From: an uncultured delta proteobacterium
GTDB taxonomy: Bacteria; Myxococcota_A; Polyangia; Polyangiales; Polyangiaceae
Assembly (NCBI GenBank): GCA_963696385.1
Contig: CAVOKF010000006.1
Span: 96,001 to 160,000, forward strand
Direction of reading: 5' to 3'
Length of the DNA stretch: 64,000 nucleotides
The stretch's first letter is position 1. The number at the start of each line of letters is the position of its first letter. The notes under the pieces were generated by a model. It worked only from the letters and a program-made list of their open reading frames with translations. It had not been told where the DNA came from and did not search any database. Both the position numbers and the translations under genes were made by a program. Shown one piece after another: positions 1,156 through 51,402 of this stretch.

Positions 1156-3072
1156 CTGAAGTTCCTGAACCAAAATCGCCGAAGTTCGCGATCTTGCTGT
1201 GGAATCGGCAAAATTGACCCGAAATGTAGGCATGTACGACGATAGAAATAGCTTTCCATTATCGATTCGATGTGCATGATGCGGAGGCATGTACATCGCA
1301 ACCGTGCCGAACCGCGGCTCTCCACCGGCGATCCTGCTGCGCGAGTCGTATCGAGAGGGCGGACGGGTCAAGTCGCGCACGCTGGCGAACCTGTCGTCGT
1401 TGACGGAAAAGCAGGTGGAGGGGATGCGGCGAGCGCTCCGCGGGGAGCCCTTGTTTGGCCCGGACGGGCCGATCCGAAAGGTGCGCGACCAAAGCCACGG
1501 TGCGGTCGACGCCGTTCGGCAAGTCATTCGCAAGTTGGGGCTCGAGGTCCTCATCGACCGACAACCAAGCCGCCAGCGCGATCTGGTGATGGCCCTGTTG
1601 GTGGCGCGCATCACCGATGCCCAGAGCAAGCTCGCGACGACGAGGGCCTGGAAGACCACGACCCTGCCCGAAGACCTCGGGATCGCGGATGCGACCGAAG
1701 ATGACCTGTATGACGCCATGGATTGGCTCTTCGAGCGGCAGGACGCGATCGAGAAGAAGTTGGCGACGCGTCACCTGCGCCAGCAAGGGTTGGTGCTCTA
1801 CGATCTGTCATCGAGCTATTTTGAAGGACACCAATGTCCGCTTGCCAAGCTCGGATACAACCGCGATGGCAAGAAGGGCAAGCTGCAGGTCAACTATGGC
1901 CTTCTCACCGATGAACGGGGCTGTCCCATTGCGGTCCAGGTTTACGAGGGAAACGCATCCGATTCGACGACGCTCCTCGACCAGGTGGAGCGTGTTCGAT
2001 CCGACTTCGGGATTGACGGATTCGTGATTGTGGGTGACCGCGGGATGATCACGGAGAAACAGATTTCGTCGCTTCGCAAAACCGGTGGGATGACCTGGGT
2101 TACCGCGCTCAAGAGCGGTCGCATTCGATCCCTCGTGCACTCGGGCGTTCTGCAACTCGGACTCTTCGACGAACGCAATCTGTTTTCCGTGCGGGACCCA
2201 AAACTTGCCGGTGAGCGGTTGATCGCATGCAAGAACCACGATCTCGCACGATTGCGCGCACACAAGCGCCAGAGCCTTGTCGACGCGACACGCAAAGAAC
2301 TCGACGCGGTGCAGAGAATTGTGGCTCGCGGAAAGCTGGTGGGCAAAGCAGCGATCGGGCTACGGATCGGAAAAGTGATCAACAAGCATAAGGTGGCCAA
2401 GCACTTCTTACTCGACATCCATGATTCCACATTCGAGTATCGCCTCCGCGAGGATCGCATCGCAGAGGAGGCAGCACTCGACGGCGTATACGTGATTCGT
2501 ACGTCCTTGAGCCAAGAGTCGACCAGCGACGAACAGGCCGTTCGCCATTACAAGAAGCTCGCGAATGTCGAACGCGCATTCCGATCCATCAAGACGATCG
2601 ACTTGAAGGTGCGCCCCATTCACCACCACTTGGAAAACCGAGTCCGAGCGCACATCTTCCTGTGCACGCTCGCTTTCTACGTGGAGTGGCACATGCGCGA
2701 AGCGTGGCGACCGGTCCTCTTCTCGGACGAGGACCAGGCTGCCAAGAACACGAGAGACCCGGTCGCGCCGGCCACCCGGTCGCCCGGTGCACTCGATAAG
2801 GTCGCCACCAAGCGAAGCGAGGACGGGGCGCCCGTCCACAGCTTCCGTACCCTGCTCGCCGATCTCGCCACGATCACGCGAAGCACCTTCGCGCCCGTCG
2901 GAGCCGACAACGAAGGCCAGACTTTCACTATGCTGACCGTCCCGTCACCCGAGCAAGCGAGAGCCCTCCAGCTACTCGAAGCCATCGCCGTGTAGGCAGT
3001 AACTCAGGCCACGATTTCGACGAATCCAGGGAAAATACGCCGAATTGTGTCCCGGCGGGCGGGGAACTTCAG
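1156..3072 (+). mobile_element. IS1634-family insertion sequence
   Basis: Terminal IR CTGAAGTTCC / GGAACTTCAG, flanking direct repeat CTTAGG (1150-1155, 3073-3078), single transposase ORF. Confidence 0.9.
1289..2995 (+). CDS. IS1634-family DDE transposase
   Basis: Motifs 'LLRESYREGGRVKSRTLANLS', 'LYDLSSSYFEG', 'VGDRGM', 'YKKLANVERAFRSIK', 'RVRAHIFLC'. Confidence 0.92.
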   Translation: MYIATVPNRGSPPAILLRESYREGGRVKSRTLANLSSLTEKQVEGMRRALRGEPLFGPDGPIRKVRDQSHGAVDAVRQVIRKLGLEVLIDRQPSRQRDLVMALLVARITDAQSKLATTRAWKTTTLPEDLGIADATEDDLYDAMDWLFERQDAIEKKLATRHLRQQGLVLYDLSSSYFEGHQCPLAKLGYNRDGKKGKLQVNYGLLTDERGCPIAVQVYEGNASDSTTLLDQVERVRSDFGIDGFVIVGDRGMITEKQISSLRKTGGMTWVTALKSGRIRSLVHSGVLQLGLFDERNLFSVRDPKLAGERLIACKNHDLARLRAHKRQSLVDATRKELDAVQRIVARGKLVGKAAIGLRIGKVINKHKVAKHFLLDIHDSTFEYRLREDRIAEEAALDGVYVIRTSLSQESTSDEQAVRHYKKLANVERAFRSIKTIDLKVRPIHHHLENRVRAHIFLCTLAFYVEWHMREAWRPVLFSDEDQAAKNTRDPVAPATRSPGALDKVATKRSEDGAPVHSFRTLLADLATITRSTFAPVGADNEGQTFTMLTVPSPEQARALQLLEAIAV

Positions 3073-3182
3073 CTTAGGGGCTTCCGTTGTCACCGAGCGG
3101 CGAAAGATTGGATGGGGCGGCGGACGCGGGCGGGGACTGAACGAAGCGCGGGGCTACGACGGTACGAACGCGGAGGGTGCCC

Positions 3183-9682: not shown

Positions 9683-9767
9683 CGTCGGTCGACGAAAAGC
9701 CGCGGAAGCGGGCGCGGAAACATATCGCGTCTTAGGGGCTTCCGTTGTCACCGAGCGGCGAAAGATT
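9683..9767 (+). repeat. oriIS-like repeat, copy 2 (outer ~20 nt missing or replaced; IS110 inserted at inner end)
   Basis: CGTCGGTCGACGAAAAGCCGCGG...GAGCGGCGAAAGATT directly abuts the IS110 left end. Confidence 0.88.
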
Positions 9768-9981
9768 AGATGAACCGGTGGCGGCGCGTCCTGGACCGCC
9801 CGGCACGCCGCCCGGCACGGGTGCCGCAGCCTCGAGATCGATCGCGGGGCGTCTCGAGAGCAGCCCCCGTGCCGGTCGTCGGTCATCGAAAATAGCGACC
9901 GACCTCCCGCTGGATTATCCATCCGACACCCCCGCGTGCTCAAAGGCACAAAGCGAAGTGGGGGCCGAAGGGAGATCGATC

Positions 9982-11133
9982 ATGCGGAGCATAGGATTGG
10001 ATCTTGGAGCGCGCCACATTGCGTATTGCGAGATACGGAACGGAGAGGTCATCGATCGGACCTCTGTGAAGAGGCTGGACCAACTCAAGTCGCGAATCGG
10101 CCCCGACTGTCCACCTGCGCGGATTGCGTTTGATGCGTCGCGTGAAGGATGGCACGTGCACGATACCCTCACGTCGTGGGGGCACGATGCGAAGATGATC
10201 GATACGACGCGGGTGCGTGCGATGGGCGTCGCGCATCACAAGCGCAAAAACGATGCTCTCGATGCTGAGGCGGCCGCACGTGCCGTAGACCAAGGACGGA
10301 TCCCCGAGGCGCACATTCTGTCTCCCGCCCGCCGAGCCCTGCGCGCGCAGTTGAGCGTGCGCGGCGCGCTGGTCGAAACACGTGCGCAGTATGTGACGAC
10401 GATACGCGGGCTCGGGCGCGCGGCAGGCGTGCTCCTTCCCACATGCACAACCGAGAACTTTGTGAACAAGGTTCGCGAGAGCTCGCTCGACGACGCGACG
10501 AGCACGCTCATCGCGCCGCTCCTTGCCGTGCTCGTCGGAGTCGAAGAAGAGCTCACCAAGGTCGAACGGACGCTTTCGGAAATGGCGATGCGTGAGCCCA
10601 TCACGAAACTTCTCGCCACCGCTCCTGGCGTCGGCCTTATCGTGGCGTCCACCTTCGTTTCGGTGATCGACGAGGCGAAGCGCTTTCGCAATGCGCAGGC
10701 AGTCGGAGCGTACCTTGGTTTGGTGCCGTCGGAGTTGACGACAGGCGGACCTGAAAAGCGGCGCCTGGGCTCGATCACCAAGCAGGGCAACACGTATGCG
10801 AGAAAAATGCTCGTCCAAGCGGCGTGGCTCATCCTCAGGTCACGCGACATGGACGACCCGATTCGCCAGTGGGGCGACCGCATCGCCAAGACGCGAGGCA
10901 AGAGAATCGCCGTCATCGCCATCGCACGAAAACTCGCCGGCGTCCTCTGGGCGATGTGGCGCGACGGCACCGCTTACGATCCGGTGGGACAGGCCAAGGC
11001 GAGCGCAAAGGGCACTCGCAGAGAGGCTCGTTCGAAAAACGCGAATGCGGAGGCGCTCGAACGCTCCGCCAAGAAACTCCAACGGCGGGCTCCTCGCCGC
11101 AACAAGATTTCGGAGGACGTCGCCATGACATGA
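9982..11133 (+). CDS. IS110-family DEDD recombinase
   Basis: 'IGLDLG', 'KRKNDALDA', 'APGVG', 'YLGLVP...GG', 'GSITKQGN', 'AIARKLA'. Confidence 0.93.
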   Translation: MRSIGLDLGARHIAYCEIRNGEVIDRTSVKRLDQLKSRIGPDCPPARIAFDASREGWHVHDTLTSWGHDAKMIDTTRVRAMGVAHHKRKNDALDAEAAARAVDQGRIPEAHILSPARRALRAQLSVRGALVETRAQYVTTIRGLGRAAGVLLPTCTTENFVNKVRESSLDDATSTLIAPLLAVLVGVEEELTKVERTLSEMAMREPITKLLATAPGVGLIVASTFVSVIDEAKRFRNAQAVGAYLGLVPSELTTGGPEKRRLGSITKQGNTYARKMLVQAAWLILRSRDMDDPIRQWGDRIAKTRGKRIAVIAIARKLAGVLWAMWRDGTAYDPVGQAKASAKGTRREARSKNANAEALERSAKKLQRRAPRRNKISEDVAMT

Positions 11134-11523
11134 ATCGTCACGACTGTCTCCGATGCGCCTTGAGCGCGTAGCCTAAGAGCACCCCATCTGGAGGAACGTT
11201 GAACGCGACAAATTGGTAGAAGCTCTTGCGATCTCCGCTCCGGTGGAGACGTGACTGTACTTCGTGCGAAAAATTGCGTCTCGTTCCACCGCTTCGAATC
11301 CAAATCTACGTCTCGGGCCTTGGACGCGAACTTCGCTGCCCGATGAACGTGAAGAGTCAATCGAGAGGTAGCTCGCCAAGCCGCGCGTTCGGAGCGCTCC
11401 CCTTACTGTCACCGTGCTCCGGCGCCCTCAAGCGCCGAGAAGGGAAACGTCCATTGAATTCTAAGAACCCAGCTCACTCCGAAACGAAAAAAAGAAAACT
11501 CTCTGCGCGAAAACCCTTGCCCA
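11134..11523 (+). ncRNA. putative bridge/seek RNA region of IS110 copy A
   Basis: Stem GAGACGT (11246-11252) / ACGTCTC (11308-11314) encloses GCGAAAAATT (11266-11275) and CCAAATC (11300-11306), matching the target halves; exact RNA ends unknown. Confidence 0.72.
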
Positions 11524-11548
11524 CGCCACCGGTTCAGAGTCCGATTTG

Positions 11549-11810
11549 GCGGCATCACCTTGCGCACTCGCCGTAGCCAGCCGCTACGTCTCGCGATCGC
11601 GGTCACCTGCTCCTCGCCGAGTACTTCCGTAAGCCGTTTCGCATACACGCCGACTCCGGCGCGTGTACTGTTTGATCCGTGCATCGGGGGTCTCCTTTCG
11701 CGTTGTCTCACAACAGCGTCTAGAGAATCCCCGATGCCTTTGACTATCCAATTCGTGCACTATGCACGTAAGTGATCGAGATCACTCGGGAAATAAAGAT
11801 CCTACCTATG
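11549..11810 (-). mobile_element. IS4-family fragment (left end plus transposase 5' part)
   Basis: Near-identical to ~13962-14223; ends in IR ...CCTACCTATG; truncated by the IS110/repeat junction. Confidence 0.88.
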
Positions 11811-11856
11811 ATCGCGTCTTAGGGGCTTCCGTTGTCACCGAGCGGCGAAAGATTTG
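11811..11856 (+). repeat. oriIS-like repeat, copy 3 (inner half; empty IS110 target site)
   Basis: ATCGCGTCTTAGGGGCTTCCGTTGTCACCGAGCGGCGAAAGATTTG followed by G. Confidence 0.9.
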
Positions 11857-11921
11857 GCCAGCCCGGGACGCGAACGCGCGGGCGCTTGATCTTTCCCTCA
11901 ACGGGTCCGATGCTAGCCGCC

Positions 11922-12747: not shown

Positions 12748-14223
12748 CATAAGTTGGTACTTAGAGATTCGGGATGGCGCTCGCTATCACACAAGTGCGA
12801 GTGGCTCGAGGCCCATAGCGAGACGTCCGCGCTTTCGATCGCGAGCAGGATGAGCGCGGCGCGCGTTGGAATCGAGGAACTTGAGCGTTTCGGCGAGGGC
12901 ACGACGTAGTTGGCGCGGCGAGTCGAGAAGGCCGCGGAGGACATCGTCGAAGTAATGCTTGCCGGACGCGGCGGCTCGCTGGGTCGAAAGCTCCACCCCC
13001 AGCGACGCTTCCGCGAAGTGTGCGAGCGAGCGTTTCAGAAGGGCTGCGAGCAGGCTCGCCCATATCATCGCTTTCGCGATAGCGGCCTTGCCCGTATCGA
13101 AGGCATGAAGGTTGGCGTGGGATTTGAACTCTTTGAACAGGAGTTCCACCTGCCAGCGGAGGCGATACAAGCCGGCCACGTCGGCGGCGGAGAAGCGCTT
13201 GCGAGCGAGGTTGCTGTGCAGGTACACGAACGTCTTCGCGTTGCGCTTGCCGCGCTTGTAGATCGCCACAATTCGGCCGCGATACACGAATGAATTCGCC
13301 TGCCATTCGATGTCGAGATCGACCGTCTGGGCCGGAAGCAGGTCCCAGTTCAACTTCTGGCCGAGCAACTTGGGGATGGATTTGCCGGCGCTGTCGAAAG
13401 CGGCCCGAATGGTGGGTCGAATGTTTTTGGTTCCGCGGACGATGAAGGCGCCGCCCGCTTGGTCGACGTCGAAAAAGAATGTTCGCTCCTCGTACCCTCG
13501 GTCGGCCAGAAAGAGCCGCTCGCGAAGACTCGCGGCCTCGGGACGGTAGGTTCGCTCGGTCTCCTTGTCGGCCGTCAGGGCGACGATGCGCACATCGTCT
13601 TGGAGCAGACTCATCGTGACGTGCAGTTCCACGGCGGCAGGCGAGATTTTTGTAAAGCGGCCCGGCCATGTGCCTTTCAAGTCGTCCTTGAGCGCGAACG
13701 ACGTCCCGTCGTGAATGACGATGTCCCGAAAGGTCGACAGTTTGGGGGACACGGCGTGCAGAACCGGCTGGCTCATCTTCTGTACCGTCGCTTCCAGCAG
13801 CATCCGAAACATCTCTGGAAAGGACGCTTGCGCGAGCCGGTTGTGAAAGGGCTTATATCGCAGCGAAAGGCCCGCGAATTTCCGGAACGTCCGCAGAATA
13901 TCGGCCAACCACTTGGCGTGGCCCGACCCGAGCGTCGACAGCACCGCCACGACCATCGCCAGCGGCATCACCTTGCGCACGCGCCGTAGCCAGCCGCTAC
14001 GTCTCGCGATCGCGGTCACCTGCTCCTCGCCGAGTACTTCCGTAAGCCGTTTCGCATACACGCCGACTCCGGCGCGTGTACTGTTTGATCCGTGCATCGG
14101 GGGTCTCCTTTCGCGTTGTCTCACAACAGCGTCTAGAGAATCCCCGATGCCTTTGACTACCCAATTCGTGCACTATGCACGTAAGTGATCGAGATCACTC
14201 GGGAAATAAAGATCCTACCTATG
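12748..14223 (-). mobile_element. IS4-family insertion sequence
   Basis: Imperfect IR CATAAGTTGG / CCTACCTATG, 10-bp target duplication ATAACCCGTT (12738-12747, 14224-14233). Confidence 0.92.
12787..14097 (-). CDS. IS4-family transposase
   Basis: 'IHDGTSF', 'LADRGY', 'YRLRWQVELLFKEFKS' (YREK motif); AAAGGAG RBS upstream of ATG 14097. Confidence 0.92.
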   Translation of the reverse strand: MHGSNSTRAGVGVYAKRLTEVLGEEQVTAIARRSGWLRRVRKVMPLAMVVAVLSTLGSGHAKWLADILRTFRKFAGLSLRYKPFHNRLAQASFPEMFRMLLEATVQKMSQPVLHAVSPKLSTFRDIVIHDGTSFALKDDLKGTWPGRFTKISPAAVELHVTMSLLQDDVRIVALTADKETERTYRPEAASLRERLFLADRGYEERTFFFDVDQAGGAFIVRGTKNIRPTIRAAFDSAGKSIPKLLGQKLNWDLLPAQTVDLDIEWQANSFVYRGRIVAIYKRGKRNAKTFVYLHSNLARKRFSAADVAGLYRLRWQVELLFKEFKSHANLHAFDTGKAAIAKAMIWASLLAALLKRSLAHFAEASLGVELSTQRAAASGKHYFDDVLRGLLDSPRQLRRALAETLKFLDSNARRAHPARDRKRGRLAMGLEPLALV

Positions 14224-14299
14224 ATAACCCGTTAGGGGCTTTCGTGGTCCGTGCAACGGCGATTTGGCATCTCCCCGCCCATCTTAGGCTCACACGCAG

Positions 14300-14825
14300 A
14301 ACGCGTCTTGTCGATCGGTCTGCCGCGAGCACTGCCCCGCGCCTTGTGGAGCCGGCGCCCGCAAGGGATTGCGAGCGCTCTTCTTGCGTGTCCCGCGGCT
14401 GGTCGAGGAGCTCGGGGGCGTGCGCGCAGACTCTCGCGCCCATCGAAAAGATCGACGTGCTCGTACTCGACGACTTGTTGCTCACGCCTATGAAGGACGC
14501 GGAGCGCCGCGATCTCCTCGAAGTGCTCGAAGACCGTTACGACCGATGCTCGACGGTCATCACATCGCAATCACCGACCAAAAGTTGGCACGCAGCGCTC
14601 GGTGATCCGACGATCGCCGACGCGATTTGCGATCGCCTGGTGCACAACGCCCACGTGCTCGCGTTACGCGGACCCTCCATGCGGAAGAAGAAGGGCCTTT
14701 CGCCCAACCAGGAAACCGAACCCACCTGACCACCCCTCGTCGCTTCGCTCCGATCGTGATCGGGTGCGTCGGAACGGTTGATCGGGTCCGTCCGGAATGA
14801 GCGATCGGGTCGACCGGAATACGCA
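14300..14825 (+). mobile_element. istB: IS21-family remnant (istB 3' part plus right end)
   Basis: 'DVLVLDD...RRDLLEVLEDRY...STVITSQ...ADAICDRLVHNAH'; repeated GATCGGGT motifs and terminal ...CCGGAATACGCA. Confidence 0.85.
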
Positions 14826-14880: not shown

Positions 14881-14974
14881 CCAAATGGGACTCTGAACCG
14901 GCAGTGGACGCCCCTAAAACGCGATATGTTTCCGTGGCTCTTCGTCGGCCGACACGCTTTGCTTGTCCTATCCG
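14881..14974 (-). repeat. oriIS-like repeat, copy 5 (14910-14974, inverted) fused to ~20 nt of an IS110 right end (14881-14901)
   Basis: Reverse complement reads ...AAACATATCGCGTTTTAGGGGC-GTCCACTG-CCGGTTCAGAGTCCCATTTGG; outer end GCTTTGCTTGTCCTATCCG on +. Confidence 0.8.
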
Positions 14975-15773
14975 CCCATTGCGTATCCGGAAACGGGCAC
15001 ACCGCAGGGCGGGGTGATTTCGCCGATTCTGGCGAACATTTTCCTGCACGAGGTGCTCGACGTCTGGTTTGAGCGCGAAGTTAAACCAAGGCTTTCGGGC
15101 AAGGCGCTGCTCGTCCGCTACGCGGACGATGCAGTGCTTTTGTTTTCGCATGAAGTGGATGCCCGCAAGGTGCTGGACGTGCTGCCGAAGCGATTGGGTG
15201 CGTACGGCCTGGCGCTGCATCCCGAGAAGACGCGGTTGGTGGAGTTTCAGCGCCCTGACCGTCGCTCATCGAAAGTCGATGGCGGCGACCGAGGTCCTGG
15301 CAGCTTCGACCTACTCGGCTTCACGCACTACTGGGGCAAAGCTCGCTCTGGCAAGTGGATTGTCATGCGCAAAACAGCCAAAGACCGCTTCCGGAGAGCG
15401 GTGTCGCGGGTCGCGCAATGGTGCAGGGAGCACCGGCACGACGCCATCCGCGAGCAGCAGAAGGCACTTGGGCAAAAGCTGCGTGGTCACTACGGATATT
15501 ACGGAATCACCGGGAATTTCCGCGCCATCGCGCTCTTCTGCCGCAAGACTATTGCGTTGTGGCGCCGGTGGCTCAACCGCCGGTCGCAACGACGCCATAT
15601 GCCTTGGAAGCGAATGCGGCTTCTGCTGGAGCGCTACCCGCTCCCGCCGCCTCGCATCGCTCACCCATTTCTCCCGCGCGCAGCGAACCCGTGACCGAAG
15701 AGCCGGATGCGTGAATTGCGCACGTCCGGATCCGAAGGGGGGCCGGGGAGACAACCTCCCCGGCCTACCCGAC
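14975..15773 (+). mobile_element. 5'-truncated group II intron (RT/maturase 3' part to 15694, domains V-VI at 15700-15773)
   Basis: 'GTPQGGVISPILANIFLH', 'RYADD', 'FDLLGF', maturase 'LRGHYGYY'; DV GAGCCGGATGCG...CGTCCGGATC and 3' end CCTACCCGAC. Confidence 0.92.
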
Positions 15774-18306: not shown

Positions 18307-18411
18307 CGAGTAGTAAGCCCAAAGCACGTCGGTCGACGAAGAGCCGCGCAAGCCGCGGTGGAAACATATCGCGTCTTAGGGGCTTCCGTTGTCACCGAGC
18401 GGCGAAAGATT
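18307..18411 (+). repeat. oriIS-like repeat, copy 7 (IS110 inserted at inner end)
   Basis: CGAGTAGTAAGCCCAAAGCACG...GAGCGGCGAAAGATT abutting IS110 copy B. Confidence 0.92.
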
Positions 18412-18625
18412 AGATGAACCGGTGGCGGCGCGTCCTGGACCGCCCGGCACGCCGCCCGGCACGGGTGCCGCAGCCTCGAGATCGATCGCGGGGCGTCTCG
18501 AGAGCAGCCCCCGTGCCGGTCGTCGGTCATCGAAAATAGCGACCGACCTCCCGCTGGATTATCCATCCGACACCCCCGCGTGCTCAAAGGCACAAAGCGA
18601 AGTGGGGGCCGAAGGGAGATCGATC

Positions 18626-19777
18626 ATGCGGAGCATAGGATTGGATCTTGGAGCGCGCCACATTGCGTATTGCGAGATACGGAACGGAGAGGTCATCGAT
18701 CGGACCTCTGTGAAGAGGCTGGACCAACTCAAGTCGCGAATCGGCCCCGACTGTCCACCTGCGCGGATTGCGTTTGATGCGTCGCGTGAAGGATGGCACG
18801 TGCACGATACCCTCACGTCGTGGGGGCACGATGCGAAGATGATCGATACGACGCGGGTGCGTGCGATGGGCGTCGCGCATCACAAGCGCAAAAACGATGC
18901 TCTCGATGCTGAGGCGGCCGCACGTGCCGTAGACCAAGGACGGATCCCCGAGGCGCACATTCTGTCTCCCGCCCGCCGAGCCCTGCGCGCGCAGTTGAGC
19001 GTGCGCGGCGCGCTGGTCGAAACACGTGCGCAGTATGTGACGACGATACGCGGGCTCGGGCGCGCGGCAGGCGTGCTCCTTCCCACATGCACAACCGAGA
19101 ACTTTGTGAACAAGGTTCGCGAGAGCTCGCTCGACGACGCGACGAGCACGCTCATCGCGCCGCTCCTTGCCGTGCTCGTCGGAGTCGAAGAAGAGCTCAC
19201 CAAGGTCGAACGGACGCTTTCGGAAATGGCGATGCGTGAGCCCATCACGAAACTTCTCGCCACCGCTCCTGGCGTCGGCCTTATCGTGGCGTCCACCTTC
19301 GTTTCGGTGATCGACGAGGCGAAGCGCTTTCGCAATGCGCAGGCAGTCGGAGCGTACCTTGGTTTGGTGCCGTCGGAGTTGACGACAGGCGGACCTGAAA
19401 AGCGGCGCCTGGGCTCGATCACCAAGCAGGGCAACACGTATGCGAGAAAAATGCTCGTCCAAGCGGCGTGGCTCATCCTCAGGTCACGCGACATGGACGA
19501 CCCGATTCGCCAGTGGGGCGACCGCATCGCCAAGACGCGAGGCAAGAGAATCGCCGTCATCGCCATCGCACGAAAACTCGCCGGCGTCCTCTGGGCGATG
19601 TGGCGCGACGGCACCGCTTACGATCCGGTGGGACAGGCCAAGGCGAGCGCAAAGGGCACTCGCAGAGAGGCTCGTTCGAAAAACGCGAATGCGGAGGCGC
19701 TCGAACGCTCCGCCAAGAAACTCCAACGGCGGGCTCCTCGCCGCAACAAGATTTCGGAGGACGTCGCCATGACATGA
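18626..19777 (+). CDS. IS110-family DEDD recombinase (copy B)
   Basis: Translation identical to 9982-11133. Confidence 0.93.
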   Translation: MRSIGLDLGARHIAYCEIRNGEVIDRTSVKRLDQLKSRIGPDCPPARIAFDASREGWHVHDTLTSWGHDAKMIDTTRVRAMGVAHHKRKNDALDAEAAARAVDQGRIPEAHILSPARRALRAQLSVRGALVETRAQYVTTIRGLGRAAGVLLPTCTTENFVNKVRESSLDDATSTLIAPLLAVLVGVEEELTKVERTLSEMAMREPITKLLATAPGVGLIVASTFVSVIDEAKRFRNAQAVGAYLGLVPSELTTGGPEKRRLGSITKQGNTYARKMLVQAAWLILRSRDMDDPIRQWGDRIAKTRGKRIAVIAIARKLAGVLWAMWRDGTAYDPVGQAKASAKGTRREARSKNANAEALERSAKKLQRRAPRRNKISEDVAMT

Positions 19778-20167
19778 ATCGTCACGACTGTCTCCGATGC
19801 GCCTTGAGCGCGTAGCCTAAGAGCACCCCATCTGGAGGAACGTTGAACGCGACAAATTGGTAGAAGCTCTTGCGATCTCCGCTCCGGTGGAGACGTGACT
19901 GTACTTCGTGCGAAAAATTGCGTCTCGTTCCACCGCTTCGAATCCAAATCTACGTCTCGGGCCTTGGACGCGAACTTCGCTGCCCGATGAACGTGAAGAG
20001 TCAATCGAGAGGTAGCTCGCCAAGCCGCGCGTTCGGAGCGCTCCCCTTACTGTCACCGTGCTCCGGCGCCCTCAAGCGCCGAGAAGGGAAACGTCCATTG
20101 AATTCTAAGAACCCAGCTCACTCCGAAACGAAAAAAAGAAAACTCTCTGCGCGAAAACCCTTGCCCA
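19778..20167 (+). ncRNA. putative bridge/seek RNA region of IS110 copy B
   Basis: Same sequence as 11134-11523. Confidence 0.7.
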
Positions 20168-20190
20168 CGCCACCGGTTCAGAGTCCGATT

Positions 20191-32166: not shown

Positions 32167-33111
32167 TCACTGAGACACGAGCGCGTACATGGCAAAGGTA
32201 CCGGGATTGTTCGCCACAATGAGCTTGGGCGTTTTCCACTGACCGGCAACCAGCCGCGTGTGATACGGCACATACATACCGGACGACTGCGGGGAGCCCC
32301 CGAAGACGACCTCGGCCGTGGCGGTTCCGACTCCCGCCGCGAGTCCCACCTGGGCGGAATCGATGGTGTCCAGCCCCCACGATGCAAAGACCGTCGTTGC
32401 GGTCGACCAATTCGTTCCGTCGAACTGCGAAACATAGGCGTATTGGTTCACCGAGATGAACGCGAGAATGGCTTGGCCATCCGGCAGCGCCAGCATCGGT
32501 GTGGCAAAACTCGGGCTGGGGCTGTCGCCCGCGCCCATGTTCGGCCGGTTGGGATCAGTGTTGTCGACCTTGGTCGGCAACCCAAAATCCTGGACGGTCG
32601 ACCAAAGGCTTGCCGTCCGGGTGGCAAAGTGCAAGTCGGACATGGCGCTATCGGTGTAGACGACCATGAGCTCAGCACCTGTTCCGCTGAGAGCGATCAG
32701 ACTGGGAGCAAACGATGAGGTCGCGGCCGCCGACGCAGTCCCGGATTCGATCACAGTCTCGGCACCCCATGTGCCGTTGGTGCGGTCCACGGCGACCAAC
32801 GCGCCGTCGGCAGACCGAACGTAGGCCACTGTGGCGTCCGCCCCGCGTGCCGCGATGCTGGGCGCGCCCCCCGTCAGCGCCCCGATCTTGGTCACGGTCG
32901 ACCACGAGCCGGTGGCTCGCGCCGCACTCGATTCGGCCTTCGTGCCGTCGCCGGCAAAGGCGATCTCCGGGGATGTCGAACCCACGGTCAGCGACGGGGC
33001 GCCGGAAGCGGTCACTGCGGGGCCGATGGCAGCAAATGGCGCCCATGTGCCGGCCGCCCAGGTCGCGAATTGAACGGGCCCCGATGCCCCTGTCACGTCC
33101 GCTGCATCGGG
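32167..33111 (-). pseudogene. 5'-truncated secreted beta-propeller-like protein
   Basis: Repeated 'G.WS'/'APSI/L' blades; coding-like sequence begins exactly at the outer end of repeat copy 8. Confidence 0.65.
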
Positions 33112-33220
33112 CGAGTAGTAAGCCCAAAGCACGTCGGTCGACGAAGAGCCCGCGGAAGCCACCGCGGAAACATATCGCGTCTTAGGGGCTTCCGTTGTCA
33201 CCGAGCGGCGAACCGATTTG
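33112..33220 (+). repeat. oriIS-like repeat, copy 8 (native position downstream of the IS91-like transposase)
   Basis: Outer end 176 nt past the transposase stop; on the coding strand it ends GCTTTGGGCTTACTACTCG, resembling IS91/ISCR oriIS termini. Confidence 0.85.
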
Positions 33221-33287
33221 AACAGAATCCAAAGCGCACGTCGCCCGCGCGGCGCTGCATCAGCACGCCGCACTCGGGGCTCGTCGT

Positions 33288-34997
33288 TCACGCGAGTTGG
33301 AGCTCGAGTTGGTCCGACGGCTCGGCGTCTTGCGCATCGTCGGTCGGGTCGCGCGCCCGGGCGACTGGCGGCGCCTCGGTCGGCAGGCCGAGATGGGCAA
33401 GGATCTGGCGCACGGGCTCGCGCTCGGTGATCACGGCGAGCACCCGCAGTCGGCCGTGGCACTTCGGACATTGCAGAACGTCGAGGTCAAACGTTCGCCT
33501 CAAGAGCGTGGGCCAGTCCACGCGAGGCGAGGCCGCGTAGATGGCGCCGCCGAGCAGCCGTTCCCAGTGGCTGACGGCAAGCACGTTTGGTGCGAGCGCG
33601 ATGACCTCTCCCCGGAGCGCGAAGATGGGCAGTGCGGCCGGCCCCGCCTTTGTCGAGGAAACGCCGGCCGGCGCCGCACTCTCGACTTTGCTCGCTGTCG
33701 GTGCCGCTGCACCCGGACGCGCGGGGCCGGGACCCGCCATCGGATCGGTGACCGGCTTGGCCGCGCTCGACACGGGCGGTGAAGTGGGCGCGCGGGGGCA
33801 GGCAGGAGCCGTCTCGGGCGGGTTCGGTACCACGTCGCGTCGCCAGCTCGAGTGCGGCCCGAGCACTCCGCTGTAGCGCACCAGAGGGTACCGAGGGGGC
33901 GCAATGATCGCGCTCAACCGCGCCATGAAATCCATCGCGCTCATAATCCGGTACTTGCCTCGGCCGCGACGGACGTACTTGAGTCGATAGGCCACCCGCC
34001 CGCCGGGCAACCTACGAAGTCGCTCGAGCGAGAGCGGAGGTCGCGCGCCGTAGCGCGCCAGTCGTTCGCGACCCACGTGATCACCCGCTTCGATGCGGAC
34101 GCCGGCATGAACATTGAACCCGTCTCGCTCGACCGCGCCCACGAGCCCCTCGGGCCGCGCCTCCCGGTCGTCGTCCTTCGACCCGTCGTCGTCGTCGTTC
34201 GACAAGGTCGAGACCGTGCCACGGCCCATGGCGATGTCCGCGCAGGCGTCGAGGGCGGTCTGCGACGGCGGCTCGTTCGAGCGGTCTTCGAGCGGCGTGT
34301 CCTCCACATGGCCGTGGCGGCGCAGCCACGCCACGCTACGGTTCATCACACGCTCGACCAGCGCCTCGAGCTCGACCGGCGTCGGAGCGGCCGCCGGATG
34401 AAAGAGCACACGACGGTCCGGGTCCCGGGTGACGACGCCATCGAGCACCAACACGTGAAAATGCACGTTGAGATTCAAACTGCCGAAGCGTTGAACAAAG
34501 GTTACCGCTCCGCACTGCGCATCCTCGAGGCCCTCGCGCTGGGCGCGAGCGCGGTAGCGGGCAAAGATGGCCTCGACGAAGATGCGGCCCAGGGCTGTGA
34601 GAACGTCGGCCTTGAACGCCGCAAGCTTGCGCAGCTCGTACGGGAGCGACAGAACGTATTGCCGCACAGGGACGTCGGGCAAGACTCGGTCGACCAAGTG
34701 GGCAGCCGTGTTGGCCATACGCCTGCCGCAGCAACTGGGGCAGAGAGATCTTCCTTTACAGGAAAAAGCCACAAGCAAGTCGTGGCCGCATGAGTCGCAG
34801 TGGCAGCGCGTAAATCCGCACGCAAATACGCCGCAATTCAAGTACGCGCGCAGCTCCGCTTCCACGTAGCGGGGTAGCCCTCCCTCGTAGTTCTCGCGCG
34901 CGTACGCGAGAAACGATTCCAGATTCTCGCGCACCAATCCGTACAGGACCGTTTCGGTCGGGCGACGGGGAACGTAGGCGGGCGCGAGAGCGGCCAC
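33288..34997 (-). CDS. IS91/ISCR-family rolling-circle (HUH) transposase
   Basis: Zn-binding 'C..CGHDLLVAFSCKGRSLCPSC', HUH 'NVHFHVLVLDG', 'ERLARYGAR', C-terminal 'DVLQCPKCHGRLRVLA'. Confidence 0.93.
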   Translation of the reverse strand: MAALAPAYVPRRPTETVLYGLVRENLESFLAYARENYEGGLPRYVEAELRAYLNCGVFACGFTRCHCDSCGHDLLVAFSCKGRSLCPSCCGRRMANTAAHLVDRVLPDVPVRQYVLSLPYELRKLAAFKADVLTALGRIFVEAIFARYRARAQREGLEDAQCGAVTFVQRFGSLNLNVHFHVLVLDGVVTRDPDRRVLFHPAAAPTPVELEALVERVMNRSVAWLRRHGHVEDTPLEDRSNEPPSQTALDACADIAMGRGTVSTLSNDDDDGSKDDDREARPEGLVGAVERDGFNVHAGVRIEAGDHVGRERLARYGARPPLSLERLRRLPGGRVAYRLKYVRRGRGKYRIMSAMDFMARLSAIIAPPRYPLVRYSGVLGPHSSWRRDVVPNPPETAPACPRAPTSPPVSSAAKPVTDPMAGPGPARPGAAAPTASKVESAAPAGVSSTKAGPAALPIFALRGEVIALAPNVLAVSHWERLLGGAIYAASPRVDWPTLLRRTFDLDVLQCPKCHGRLRVLAVITEREPVRQILAHLGLPTEAPPVARARDPTDDAQDAEPSDQLELQLA

Positions 34998-37116: not shown

Positions 37117-37274
37117 TGATCCTGCTCCTCGTCATCGGGGAGCAGGCCCGTCTTTACTACCTTAAGGGGTGGTCCGAAATTTGGGGTCCACTTCAGTGAT
37201 TCTCCCCCGCTACCCCCAGACCGTCACGAGACGATCGTCAATCCCATCTAGACACCATCCTGAATCGGGTCTCG

Positions 37275-37770
37275 ACAGAAACGTCCATCCGCGACACCGA
37301 CCGAAGTCCATCGCGACACCCGCGACGTCCATCCACGACACCAACCGACGTCCATCCACGACACCGGCCGAAGTCCATCGGCGACACGGACCGACGTCCA
37401 TCCGCGACACCGACCGAAGTCCATCGCGACACCAACCGACGTCCATCCACGACACCGGCCGACGTCCATCGCGACACCAACCGACGTCCATCCGCGACAC
37501 CAACCGACGTCCATCGCGACACCAACCGACGTCCATCCGCGACACCAACCGACGTCCATCGCGACACCAACCGACGTCCATCCGCGACACCAACCGACGT
37601 CCATCCGCGACACCGGCTCAACGTCCATCCGCGACACCGGCTCAACGTCCATCCGCGACACCCCCGACGTCCATCCACGACACCAACCGACGTCCATCCG
37701 CGACACCGGCCGACGTCCATCCGCGACACCGGCCGACGTCCATCCGCGACACCGACCGACGTCCGCGACC
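37275..37770. repeat. tandem repeat, ~22 units of 21-23 bp
   Basis: Consensus CCGACGTCCATC(C)GCGACACCAA, with 22- and 23-bp variants alternating in the middle. Confidence 0.92.
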
Positions 37771-37967
37771 ACGAGACGGCAGGCCTCCATGCATCAGAAG
37801 GTCGAGCGAAAGGAACTTGAATCACTGCGGCGGGCAGCCAGGGACGACATTGGTTCGGCGCGCATCCCCGTCATGACTGCCTCCAGGAAAGAAACGGGAC
37901 TCGCTGGGGTCGAGGGGAACGCCCCGCCCCCGGCCCGCATGCGCGCTAAACTCCGACCGTGGCTGGC

Positions 37968-48858: not shown

Positions 48859-50805
48859 GTGCCGGAAACCGCTGCGACTTCTCCCAGGCCGTCTCCCCGA
48901 AAACCTTCCGGCGACGCTGCGAAGCCTCCGTACGCGTCGCTCTTGCGATGGGTCCTTCTGGCGCTGTTTCTCGCGGGGGGCTGGGCCTATCAAATCCACG
49001 ACGCAAAGGAAGAAGCCGTACCCGAGATCCGATACAGCGACGTCTACGCGCTGCTCGACTCCAGCAAAGTCGATTCGGTCACCCTGAGAGGCCTTCAGAT
49101 CCGCGGGAAGCTGAAGGACGCCGAGAAGGTCGATGGCCAATCGGTCACCACGTTTCGCTCGCTTCTGCCCGCGGTGGAGGACCGGGCCTTCCTGCCGTTG
49201 CTTCGCGAAAAGGGAGTTGCCGTCACGGTGAGGAGCGAAGAGCAGACCCCGCTGGTCCGCATTCTTACGGCCGTTCTCCCTTGGGTCCTCATCCTCGGGG
49301 CGTGGGTCTGGATGTCGCGTCAGGCCGCGGGCGCCATGGCGGGTGGACCGATCGGGCGGATGCTCACGGGCCGGTCCACCCGCGTGGATCCCGCCGCGCG
49401 GGTGCAGGTGAAGTTCGACGACGTGGCGGGCCTGAAGAGCGCGAAGCGCGACCTCAGTGAGATCGTCGACTTCCTGAAGGCTCCCGCTGACTTTCGCCGG
49501 TTGGGTGGAAAGGTGCCGCACGGCGTCCTGCTCGTAGGACCGCCGGGAACGGGCAAGACGCTGCTCGCGCGAGCGGTCGCCGGAGAGGCGGGCGTTCCGT
49601 TTTTCTCGGTGACCGGCTCCGAATTCATCGAGCTTTTCGTGGGTATGGGCGCCAAACGTGTCCGTGACCTCTTCGAGCAGGCCAAGCAGGTGTCGCCCGC
49701 AATCGTCTTCATCGACGAGATTGATGCCGTGGGTCGATCGCGAGGCGCTGGATTGGGCGGAGGCAACGACGAGCGCGAGCAGACTCTGAACCAGCTCCTG
49801 TCCGAGATGGATGGCTTCTCCCGCAACGAACTGACGATCGTCCTTGCGGCCACCAACCGGCCAGATGTCCTCGATCCGGCTCTGTTGCGACCGGGCCGTT
49901 TTGACCGACGCGTGATCGTCGACCGACCGGAGCTGGCCGCTCGCACGTCGATCCTCGCCGTGCACACGCGGGACAAGCCCCTCGCCCCTGACGTGGACCT
50001 CGGGGTCGTTGCAGCGATGACTGCGGGATTCTCCGGCGCGGATCTTGCCAACCTGGCCAACGAGGCCGCGTTGGGGGCGACACGGCGCAAGGCCGACGCG
50101 ATCCAGGCCAGCGATTTTGCCGCCGCCTACGACAAGATCGTGCTCGGCGATCCTCGCGAGGCCAAGCTCGACAAAGTCGAGCGCGAGCGTGTGGCCATCC
50201 ACGAGTCGGGCCACGCCGTGGCCGCCTTCTTCGAGCGGCTGGCAGAGCCGCCGGCCCGCGTAAGCATCATCCCGCGCGGAATGGCGCTCGGGGCCACGCA
50301 GCAGACCCCTGGAGTGGATCGGCACCTGTTGTCGCAGCCCGAACTCGAAGCGAGACTTCGGGTTCTCATGGGTGGATACGCGGCGGAATCGCTCGTGCTC
50401 GGCTCCGTCTCCTCCGGAGCCGCCGACGACCTGCGCAAGGCGACGGAGATTGCGTTCGAGATGGTCGGTCACTACGGCATGAGCGAACTGCTGGGGCCGG
50501 TCTTCTACGAGCACCGGACCTCGCAGCCGTTTCTGGGGCAGCAGATTGCCCTCGAGGGAACAACGAGCGACGCGACTGTGCACACCATCGAGCAGGAGAC
50601 CGGTAGCCTGCTGAACGAGGCTCTGCGTACGACACGCAACGTCCTATCGACGCACCGGTCCGCCCTCGATGCGCTCATCGCCGCGCTTCTTGCGCACGAG
50701 ACACTCGAAAAGGACGAGTTGACCCGGTGCTTGAGTGCGGCGTCTTTGCCGGAGGCCGGTGCGCCCTCCGGATTGTCGGGGGCAGGCCCGACGCAACTCG
50801 CATAG
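48859..50805 (+). CDS. ftsH: ATP-dependent zinc metalloprotease FtsH (paralogue)
   Basis: Two TM segments, GPPGTGKT, '[10 protein letters not shown]', '[20 protein letters not shown]', HESGH; start uncertain. Confidence 0.93.
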
Positions 50806-50835
50806 CCTCCAGGCGTGCCTTGCCGCGCTCGGTCC

Positions 50836-51196
50836 GCCCCGATCCATGGCCGTGAACGACGAGTGCATCGGACGCACCTACGCGGCGACGCGAAGAGGGG
50901 ACCCACGCCCCGATCCATGGCCGTGAACGACGAGTGCATCGGACGCACCTACGCGGCGACGCGAAGAGGGGACTCACGCCCCGATCCACGGCCGTGAACG
51001 ACGAGTGCATCGGACGCACCTACGCGGCGACGCGAAGAGGGGACCCACGCCCCGATCCATGGCCGTGAACGACGAGTGCATCGGACGCACCTACGCGGCG
51101 ACGCGAAGAGGGGACCCACGCCCCGATCCATGGCCGTGAACGACGAGTGCATCGGACGCACCTACGCGGCGACGCGAAGAGGGGACCCACGCCCCG
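50836..51196. repeat. 71-bp tandem repeat x5
   Basis: GCCCCGATCCATGGCCGTGAACGACGAGTGCATCGGACGCACCTACGCGGCGACGCGAAGAGGGGACCCAC at 50836, 50907, 50978, 51049, 51120. Confidence 0.95.
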
Positions 51197-51219
51197 AAGC
51201 CATCCTGCGGGACCCGCTC

Positions 51220-51402
51220 GGCGGTCACGGCAGGGTTCGATGCTTCAGATCGGATTTGGAGGAGGTGTCTCGAATCGGTCGTGCGGCCGTCGTCGCATGC
51301 TGACCGAGCTTGTCGGCGGTCACGGCAGGGTTCGATGCTTCGAGATCGGATCTGGAGGAGGTGTCTGGAATCGCTCGTGCGATCGGATGCTGACCGAGCT
51401 CG
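51220..51402. repeat. imperfect ~94-bp direct repeat x2
   Basis: CGGCGGTCACGGCAGGGTTCGATGCTTC...ATGCTGACCGAGCT twice. Confidence 0.8.

Follow-up and report, generated by a model that had tools for sequence, protein, structure and literature searches.

An IS1111-type insertion sequence and its predicted guide RNA at the end of an IS91/ISCR-like origin-end repeat

An IS1111-type insertion sequence (IS) in the genome of an uncultured delta proteobacterium of the Polyangiaceae is very probably RNA-guided, with an RNA encoded at 11152-11377 that directs insertion between GCGAA and CCGATTTG. By sequence comparison, the repeat that receives the IS is the right-end (oriIS) module of IS91/ISCR-like elements, together with miniature copies of that module; its function as an origin is putative. 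All positions refer to the window, a stretch of 64,000 nt from contig CAVOKF010000006.1 (assembly GCA_963696385.1), and are collected in Table 1. The window had previously been annotated from its letters alone, and the outcome for the claims of this sequence-only reading is given together with the results that bear on them.

Table 1 Features of the insertion sequence, its predicted RNA and its targets in the window.
Feature	Position	Strand	Basis or remark
Host repeat, left part (IS91-like oriIS-end module), closing with left half-site GCGAA (9758-9762)	9683-9762	+	
IS1111-type insertion sequence, copy 1, 1778 bp	9763-11540	+	Occupied/empty locus pair; end homology in 25 related loci; flank/guide rule
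Left terminal extension, 8 nt, AGATTAGA	9763-9770	+	Precedes left inverted repeat
Left sub-terminal inverted repeat TGAACCGGTGGCG	9771-9783	+	Perfect 13-bp match with 11524-11536
Transposase/recombinase gene, 383 aa	9982-11133	+	Pfam, NCBIfam, motif GLVPSELTTG
Bridge/seek RNA gene (predicted): conserved scaffold, two internal loops, four guide segments	11152-11377	+	Covariation
Right-target guide CAAATTGG, target loop 5' side, complementary to CCGATTTG top strand	11209-11216	+	Covariation
Left-target guide GCGAA (11266-11270) plus constant AAATT, target loop 3' side	11266-11275	+	Covariation
Donor loop 5' side CCAAATCT	11300-11307	+	Consensus structure; assignment tentative
Left-donor guide AGAGT (identical to the final 5 nt of the IS) followed by CAATCGA, donor loop 3' side	11353-11364	+	Covariation
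-35 box TTGCCC of the promoter at the modelled circle junction	11517-11522	+	-10 box formed by T11540 and AGATT 9763-9767
Right sub-terminal inverted repeat CGCCACCGGTTCA, then 4-nt extension GAGT (11537-11540)	11524-11536	+	
Right half-site CCGATTTG, final 8 nt of host repeat	11541-11548	+	
Repeat-end variant GCGAAAGATTTGG	11845-11857	+	6 copies genome-wide versus 32 canonical
IS copy 2, identical to copy 1, within another repeat copy	18407-20184	+	100% identity
Uninterrupted repeat, right end of full IS91/ISCR-like element	33110-33220	+	
Exact empty target GCGAACCGATTTG	33208-33220	+	67 nt past transposase stop codon
IS91/ISCR-like Y2 transposase gene, 569 aa	33288-34997	-	Pfam above gathering

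The element is assigned to the IS110 family, IS1111 type, as the sequence-only reading had it. Its 383-aa gene product matches Pfam PF01548 and PF02371 (E = 2.4e-08 and 1.1e-18, both above gathering) and NCBIfam NF033542 (217.6 bits, cut-off 140), and contains the motif GLVPSELTTG; non-coding DNA amounts to 407 nt downstream of the gene versus 219 nt upstream. The two copies in the window had been placed at 9764-11546 and 18408-20190. They are indeed 100% identical over these 1783 nt, but the ends really lie at 9763-11540 and 18407-20184, with terminal extensions of 8 nt on the left (AGATTAGA) and 4 nt on the right (GAGT) as derived from an occupied/empty comparison. Five full copies and some truncated ones are found genome-wide. 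Both copies had been said to occupy the same nucleotide of the repeat, and genome-wide copies at unrelated sites had been named as a refuting result; all left junctions (6/6) read ...GCGAA|AGATTAGATGAACC, in the same orientation and at one and the same nucleotide, in six different ~107-bp repeats.

The target reads GCGAA|CCGATTTG, which is the form in which the repeat commonly ends. At one locus the genome has the empty site (...GGCGAA|CCGATTTGG...) where two metagenome contigs carry the IS (...TTCAGAGT|CCGATTTGG...), with 158/158 bases identical past the right junction and no target duplication. Hence, CCGATT (11541-11546) is target DNA and not part of the IS. The genome holds 32 exact empty copies of the target against 0.14 expected by chance, 14 of which are palindromic (hairpin AATCGG-CGAA-CCGATT), and the same end rule is confirmed for a Sorangium relative, whose own target is present there as four empty copies. 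Some IS flanks occur duplicated in the genome. The sequence-only reading had taken GCGAAAGATTTGG at 11845-11857 as the empty site; this is a rarer variant without the CC that every occupied site keeps, and the pre-insertion sequence is that of the 32 exact empty copies. On the rather doubtful harbour-and-vehicle idea set out below, rarer end variants, GCGAAAGATTTGG among them, could be scars of an interplay between the IS and IS91 elements. As an excision scar, GCGAAAGATTTGG was considered and set aside: it differs from the canonical end by CC -> A alone, and for this reason a scar and ordinary repeat variation are indistinguishable.

The proposal that the target is the end repeat of a rolling-circle IS91/ISCR element is upheld by the gene content. 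In 5-6 copies a Y2/Zn-finger transposase gene is followed ~70-80 bp downstream by the repeat, whose ~107 bp are the last of the element; palindromes are visible in its sequence. The assignment to the oriIS end follows PMC13181058, which places the oriIS of IS91 at the right end and terIS-orf121-tnpA at the opposite one. The 569-aa transposase in the window matches Pfam Y2_Tnp (7.3e-24) and Zn_Tnp_IS91 (4.4e-17), both above gathering, and scores below the NCBIfam cut-offs (ISCR clade Ia, 285.9 bits versus 925; IS91, 96.9 versus 125). No other part of the repeat is as conserved across several diverged subfamilies as the 13-nt site; solo modules stop exactly at it, and in full elements GTTC adjoins. 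The IS91-like transposase gene is on one side of the site and the terminal ~97 nt of oriIS on the other, and in the miniature modules the inner end is 8 nt away, so that insertion need destroy neither gene nor origin. A more speculative and on balance rather doubtful idea is that the IS uses the origin-end module as both harbour and vehicle, each copy leaving the gene and oriIS intact and travelling with the IS91 element or miniature module when that transposes. On this idea the site may also be the hairpin at which rolling-circle transfer of the miniature modules terminates.

A guide RNA gene lying downstream of the one for the transposase, as previously proposed, is predicted from a conserved structured region with covarying guides. 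Of 51 related loci, motif search yielded ends in 25 and none in 26, and the comparison set for the structure consists of 15 related elements from Polyangiales genomes. Their alignment supports 39 base pairs, 17 of them with compensatory changes, with 95% of cells paired, and 0/500 shuffles were as good. Folding had been suggested as a check alongside covariation; folded by minimum energy as a whole, the 413-nt non-coding region does not exceed its shuffles (z = -0.38). An Rfam search of the window at gathering thresholds gave tRNA only and no family matching the RNA region. Contigs from RNA libraries of three studies cover the RNA region at ~98% identity; these libraries may contain DNA, and contig depth (64 versus 3-4 in X1) is unusable as an expression level and cannot rank parts of the gene, so the contigs are only a hint of expression. 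No joint of the kind expected from a circle is seen in these contigs, a negative that carries no weight because contigs cannot reveal one.

Guidance by this RNA is supported by the covariation between its guides and the flanks of 16 distinct elements. For the 8-nt guide, agreement with the right flank of the same element averages 7.6/8 positions (8/8 in 10 elements and 7/8 in 6), versus 3.05/8 for the flanks of other elements, and four of the six mismatches are G:U or G:T wobbles. For the 5-nt guide the corresponding means are 4.7/5 for the own left flank and 1.45/5 for others; it equals the flank in 12 elements, with 4/5 in 3 and 3/5 in 1 (L008). None of 20,000 permutations attained either guide-match sum. 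Two elements, L021 and L022, differ by a single guide base that is matched by the flank base, and the order of the guides, with the homologue of 11209-11216 before that of 11266-11270, is kept in 16/16 elements. In the element studied here, CAAATTGG and CCGATTTG form seven Watson-Crick pairs and one rU:dG wobble, and in environmental variants from the RNA-library contigs the change 11214 T>C turns the wobble into a Watson-Crick pair (8/8). These statistics exclude the internally deleted L024, L027 (left guide 1/5; contig ends within the right flank) and insertions repeating the guides of another (L006, L009, L012, L023, L025, L026, L034 and L037). Two choices were made post hoc: the right end of L019 is the third of three candidates, and the guide of L021/L022 was moved 2 nt from the MAFFT columns.

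All strings quoted in the sequence-only reading are present where it put them (GAGACGT 11246-11252, ACGTCTC 11308-11314, GCGAAAAATT 11266-11275, CCAAATC 11300-11306, AGAGTC 11353-11358 and GCGAAAGATTTGG 11845-11857), although not all in the roles it gave them. Its target guide GCGAAAAATT, that is GCGAA(AAATT), covaries with the left flank and was correctly recognized. CCAAATC is not supported as the second target guide: it sits in the donor loop and shows no covariation with flanks, and CAAATTGG at 11209-11216 takes this role instead. AGAGTC was rightly suspected to be a donor guide, since it covaries with the IS right end, with AGAGT, ATAGT or ATCGT in both; the base after it varies with the one that opens the right flank, which is C, or T in L003 and L020. 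The further donor guides suggested at 11449-11464 lie in a stretch that is unaligned and not conserved among relatives. The AAATT after the left guide resembles the IS left end AGATT, and the constant 3' extensions of the sense guides may act as 'handshake' segments, as in IS621. On the 5' side of the donor loop, the reverse complement of CCAAATCT resembles the IS left end at only 6/8 positions here and 4-7/8 in relatives, which leaves the role of this segment uncertain. Among relatives it tracks the left-end type, and comparison with their flanks gave no match. When the ends are joined in a model, TTGNNN, 17 nt and TAGA(T/C)(T/G) follow one another in 17/17 elements.

The copies, junctions, occupied/empty pair, guide/flank covariation and structural covariation are direct results, whereas expression of the RNA, its binding by the recombinase, a circular form and the steps of strand exchange are what we infer. 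The 383-aa DEDD recombinase would partner an RNA of ~225 nt encoded just 3' of its gene (11152-11377). On the 5' side of the target loop, CAAAUUGG would pair with CCGATTTG on the top strand, to the right of where the IS enters, and on the 3' side GCGAA would pair with the bottom strand to the left; AAAUU, similar to the left end of the IS, comes next. In the donor loop, AGAGU on the 3' side is identical to the last five bases of the IS, and the 5' side holds a segment resembling the complement of its left end. In the excised circle ...GGTTCAGAGT would be joined to AGATTAGATGAACC..., creating the promoter TTGCCC-17-TAGATT. The element inserts between GCGAA and CCGATTTG, with a single orientation and no duplicated target. 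This 13-nt site forms the end of the ~107-bp oriIS module of IS91/ISCR-like elements and of their many miniature solo copies.

The sequence-only reading had combined its elements differently, into a target GCGAAA-GATT-TGG, a 4-bp GATT core common to donor and target, an IS ending in ...GAGTCCGATT and a stem-closed loop carrying GCGAAAAATT and CCAAATC. Its guides do match GCGAAAGATTTGG, at 9/10 and 7/7 positions (8/8 if extended to CCAAATCT), GATT is present at both junctions and the genome holds six copies of GCGAAAGATTTGG. We nevertheless find this version very unlikely. The occupied/empty pair makes CCGATT target DNA, relatives end in ...NNG-T, and right flanks without GATT are read in these relatives by the guide homologous to 11209-11216. 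The proposed 7-bp stem GAGACGT/ACGTCTC is paired in 36.8% of cells in the 15 relatives, no better than in shuffled or slid controls, and ACGTCTC pairs instead with the 11343-11351 region, with compensatory changes. Moreover, CCAAATCT-type segments in relatives do not track flanks, and the proposed ends abolish the spacing of the junction promoter. The circle junction as it had been written, which would contain GAGTCCGATTAGA, is not supported.

We give hardly any credence to a protein that reads the site alone, for example as the hairpin AATCGG-CGAA-CCGATT, with the 3' region serving regulation or end binding. The palindromic form of the site in 14/32 exact empty copies would suit such a protein, but thirteen variable RNA positions follow the flanks of 16 elements with unrelated targets, and for relatives an experimental need for RNA is described in PMC11187229 and PMC11208160. 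The shared position could also arise if a composite of miniature IS91 module and IS were copied as a unit, through the IS91 transposase or a segmental duplication, and the location of the IS inside a mobile ~107-bp module, 8 nt from its end, as well as the duplicated flanks, would fit. However, the six host repeats are 74-92% alike (81.4% for those of copies 1 and 2), whereas the IS copies are pairwise 98.5-100% alike; the insertions are therefore independent. The locus that is empty in the genome and occupied in metagenome contigs likewise speaks against composite copying, which we consider exceedingly improbable. RNA-guided insertion remains our preferred explanation.

The mechanism is already known and no new one is revealed; the target alone is new. 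What the element and its relatives provide is a natural data set on bridge/seek-RNA recombinases of the IS1111 branch, in which sixteen related elements have differing targets and the four guide segments, scaffold helices, exact ends and junction promoter are readable by comparison alone. It includes a one-base natural retargeting and tolerated G:U wobbles, and it raises the idea of one transposon riding inside another. A literature search for IS1111/IS110 elements aimed at IS91/ISCR ends gave general surveys only, at the level of titles and abstract starts, and the supplementary target tables of seekRNA and bridge RNA studies may hold such a case.

The closest described systems are ISEc11, ISPa11, ISKpn4 and ISPst6 (Siddiquee et al. 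2024, PMC11187229), which share with the present element a DEDD transposase with the motif GL-P----(S/T)G, sub-terminal inverted repeats (11-13 bp there, 13 here), an RNA in a long downstream non-coding region and orientation-specific insertion without duplication. The guide order is also common to both, with the top-strand-complementary guide of IS1111 seekRNAs placed 5' of the bottom-strand-complementary one. In contrast, the transposase has 383 aa here and 330-350 aa there, the extensions of 8 and 4 nt exceed the 7 bp (left) and 3 bp (right) of those elements by one base on each side, and insertion is directed to the inner edge of an IS91-like oriIS module and not to a REP, attC or short linear site; the present element is known from its sequence only. 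With the bridge RNA of IS621, as outlined by Durrant et al. 2024 (PMC11208160), it shares target and donor internal loops with guides for opposite strands and, as modelled, a promoter created at the circle junction. Unlike in IS621, the RNA lies in the right end, where the same source predicts bridge RNAs for 93% of IS1111 elements, the guide order inside each loop is reversed, and no shared dinucleotide core is evident here (crossover at T|A in the donor and N|C in the target). The sequence-only reading overstated the novelty of such a target type for the family, given that IS1111/IS110 members aimed at other mobile elements (Tn21 inverted repeats, attC sites and an IS3 transposase gene) are already in print. 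Like these, the present element is a superfamily member directed at a conserved portion of a different mobile-element class, but the host here is a rolling-circle (HUH/Y2) transposon, and IS91/ISCR-like origin modules join the mobile-element parts that IS1111/IS110 elements target.

The source genome (6.9 Mb, 66% G+C), whose nearest relatives among the fetched loci are Polyangiales, carries an IS1111-type element of the IS110 family (hereafter the IS) at 9763-11540 and 18407-20184 of the window. Its transposase scores 217.6 bits against a cut-off of 140 with the NCBIfam model "IS110 family RNA-guided transposase". A sequence-only reading had described two identical copies at the same nucleotide of a repeat, and this holds: the copies are 100% identical over 1783 nt, and genome-wide, where five full and several truncated copies are present, 6 of 6 left junctions share the repeat nucleotide and the orientation (...GCGAA/AGATTAGATGAACC; slashes mark junctions). 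The genome has about 60 copies of the repeat, which is about 107 bp long. Given that the six host repeats are 74-92% alike in pairwise comparison whereas the IS copies are 98.5-100% alike, the insertions are independent and not copies of one composite.

The ends of the element had been placed at 9764 and 11546, with a 4-bp GATT core at both junctions, but three lines of evidence shift them to 9763 and 11540. The end architecture common to 25 related loci is (flank)-A-GAT(T/G)(A/G)GA-inverted repeat ... inverted repeat-NNG-T-(flank), and GATT is absent from their right flanks. A Sorangium relative has occupied sites of the form CACCCCCT/AGATGGGA...CATCGT/CGGAAGG and, in the same genome, four empty sites reading CACCCCCTCGG(G/A)AGG or close variants. 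The decisive line is an occupied/empty pair: two metagenome contigs contain the IS right end (...GGTTCAGAGT/CCGATTTGGTTCTCGAG...), beyond which 158 of 158 bases equal this genome's contig C2 at about 106.67 kb, where the locus is empty (...AATCGGCGAA/CCGATTTGGTTCTCGAG...). From these comparisons it follows that CCGATT is target DNA and not part of the IS. The pre-insertion sequence is GCGAA/CCGATTTG, with no duplication on insertion. This canonical 13-mer accounts for 32 exact empty sites in the genome, against 0.14 expected by chance, whereas the empty site picked earlier at 11845-57 (GCGAAAGATTTGG) is a rarer repeat-end variant with 6 copies. Judged by eye, 28 of the 32 lie within recognisable repeats of several diverged subfamilies, and 5 run on into the interior of IS91-like elements.

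Coding regions and guide segments of the IS and its target element
Feature	Window position	Strand	Sequence	Length	Description
IS transposase ORF	9982-11133			383 aa	Both domains of IS110-family transposases
Right-target guide	11209-16		CAAATTGG	8 nt	Reverse complement of the 8 bases directly right of the IS
Left-target guide	11266-70		GCGAA	5 nt	Identical to the 5 bases on the left of the IS
Fourth block	11300-07		CCAAATCT		Reverse complement resembles the IS left end
Left-donor guide (third block)	11353-57		AGAGT		Same as the final five bases of the IS
IS91-like transposase ORF	33288-34997	minus		569 aa	Pfam Y2_Tnp and Zn_Tnp_IS91

Alignment of the relatives' 3' non-coding regions with MAFFT revealed a conserved scaffold broken by short variable blocks. 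Among 16 distinct elements, the right-target guide matches its own right flank at 8 of 8 positions in 10 and at 7 of 8 in 6 (mean 7.6/8, versus 3.05/8 against other elements' flanks), and four of the six mismatches, this element's own among them, are G:U or G:T wobbles. The left-target guide matches its own left flank at 5/5 in 12 elements, 4/5 in 3 and 3/5 in 1 (mean 4.7/5 versus 1.45/5), and is followed by a near-constant A(A/G)A(T/A/G)T that is like the IS left end, AGAT(T/G). Neither observed guide/flank sum was reached in any of 20,000 permutations. The count excludes loci L024 and L027 as well as repeat insertions with identical guides, and includes two post hoc choices made after the data were seen: at locus L019 the third of three candidate right ends was used, the first two being tandem duplicates of that end, and at L021 and L022 the guide was moved 2 nt off the MAFFT columns. 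A single guide base distinguishes L021 from L022, and their flanks differ at the matching base: a natural retargeting. Four insertions of one relative in two metagenome-assembled genomes (L005, L006, L009 and L012) sit at one and the same site, (A)ACCGC/CAGGACGCCA, although their flanks otherwise differ, so other members of the clade also aim at dispersed repeats.

The left-donor guide varies along with the IS right end among relatives (AGAGT, ATAGT, ATCGT), and the base 3' of it tracks the base with which the right flank begins (mostly C, but T in related loci L003 and L020). The block at 11300-07, proposed earlier as the second target guide, tracks the left-end type and not the flanks; its reverse complement agrees with the IS left end at 6/8 positions here and at 4-7/8 in relatives, and we tentatively regard it as the right-donor guide.

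A consensus fold from 15 elements (RNAalifold) contains 39 pairs, 17 of which keep pairing through two-sided changes, with 95% of cells paired in the same alignment; 0 of 500 shuffles reached the observed pairing or covariation, and moving partners by 1-3 columns gave 23-52% pairing. The predicted fold comprises an outer helix and two internal loops: a target loop, whose 5' side carries the right-target guide and whose 3' side carries the left-target guide, and a donor loop with the 11300-07 segment 5' and the left-donor guide 3'. The previously suggested stem GAGACGT/ACGTCTC is paired in 36.8% of cells, no better than controls, and its 3' half, ACGTCTC, forms part of the helix at the apex of the donor loop.

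Outside the window, C6:502-807 and C7:2659-2965 of this genome hold right-end fragments of a 91-95% IS relative. The target loop is still present in them, but the region of the left-donor guide is missing and no left end lies further upstream; these are probably inactive remnants, carried in a segment that is duplicated at the starts of contigs. Parts of the right end are duplicated in tandem in L019 (3900-4400) and at C6:22332-24195. DNA coding for the left-donor guide necessarily mimics the IS right end, and L019 has its right end (...CATCGT) fused to such internal DNA (ATCGT/CGATTGAG), which looks like self-recombination between the IS end and its own guide-coding copy; in C6 the joint lies at another internal point.

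The 569-aa IS91-like protein has its best NCBIfam matches to ISCR clade Ia and IS91, each below cut-off. In 5-6 copies of its gene the repeat lies about 70-80 bp past the stop codon in inverted orientation, and the similarity between element copies stops at the far end of the repeat. According to PMC13181058, IS91 has terIS at its left end, adjoining orf121-tnpA, and oriIS at its right end, where the last 82 bp are enough for function; the origins of IS91 and IS801 each have two sub-terminal palindromes. Read against this layout, its place downstream of an IS91-like gene, at the end of the element, makes the repeat the origin-end module, and the earlier assignment to a rolling-circle (IS91/ISCR) origin is supported. 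The majority of copies are solo modules with a boundary on each side, ending ...CCGATTTG. In full IS91-like elements GTTC directly adjoins this end point (GTTC/AAATCGG in transposase orientation; window 33208-33230 and other copies). The same tetranucleotide is cleaved at terIS in IS801 and IS1294 (PMC13181058), and its presence may explain the many miniature modules, which we infer to be products of early termination. The IS site lies at the module's inner edge. Of the 32 exact empty sites, 14 are embedded in a perfect hairpin, AATCGG-CGAA-CCGATT, whose loop has the crossover at its 3' side. In full elements, 67 nt separate the site from the transposase stop upstream of it and about 97 nt separate it from the terminus; an insertion at this point could leave both intact. 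All 6 insertions lie outside full IS91-like elements, which is not significant given that 5 of about 40 such sites are in full elements.

Joining the corrected ends in a modelled circle yields TTGCCC, 17 nt and TAGATT, and 17 of 17 elements, joined likewise, follow TTGNNN-17-TAGA(T/C)(T/G). Promoters formed at the circle junction are known from these families (PMC11187229); at the junction modelled from the earlier ends the spacing is lost. Contigs from three RNA-library studies (X1, X2 and X4) reach from the 3' end of the gene across the entire RNA region at ~98% identity, and shorter ones from relatives cover the conserved donor-loop part only; as the libraries may contain DNA and contig depth is incomparable along a gene, they only hint at expression. 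Informative whether the contigs derive from RNA or DNA is an environmental variant, 11214 T>C, which turns the guide into CAAATCGG and makes it fully complementary to CCGATTTG. Uninterrupted repeats (...GGCGAA/CCGATTTGG...) are also present in these contigs, and their similarity to the window stops exactly at 9762.

Window 0-35 kb is throughout a nest of mobile-element debris, including fragments of an IstB-like ATPase and a reverse transcriptase (RVT_1) between the IS copies (14175-14729 and 14963-15694). An IS4-family element (NCBIfam NF033592; 11549-11836 and 12787-14249; about 18 copies genome-wide) adjoins the repeat at one internal point in five places (...CTACCTATG/ATCGCGTCTTAGGGG); its other junction, in RNA-library contigs, is ATCGCGTCTT/CATAGGTAGG. 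These junctions suggest that 10 bp are duplicated on insertion and that a second element favours the repeat. An IS1634-family element (327.8 bits) splits another copy at CTTA (1080-1155, 1156-3072, 3073-3128), so that, with the IS1111-type insertions, the repeat has been struck by three different IS families. Further on are two tandem arrays (37269-37790 and 50764-51268), one of 23/45-nt units rich in CGACACC...GTCCATC and the other of six 71-nt units with 98-99% identity.

It is established that IS1111 elements select their targets by means of an RNA encoded in their right end (PMC11187229 and PMC11208160), and bridge RNAs are predicted in 93% of IS1111 entries (PMC11208160). The guide order found here agrees with that published for IS1111 seekRNAs and is opposite to the order in IS110-type elements (PMC11187229). 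Members aimed at other mobile elements include ISKpn4 and ISPst6, which target attC sites, and ISEc21, which targets an IS3 transposase gene. IS4321 and IS5075 target Tn21 inverted repeats. A literature search at the level of titles and abstract openings turned up no target in IS91/ISCR origin ends. The IS deviates slightly in its terminal extensions (8 and 4 nt, compared with 7 and 3 nt in known members) and in its protein length (383 aa); it is of the known RNA-guided IS1111 kind, with a new target.
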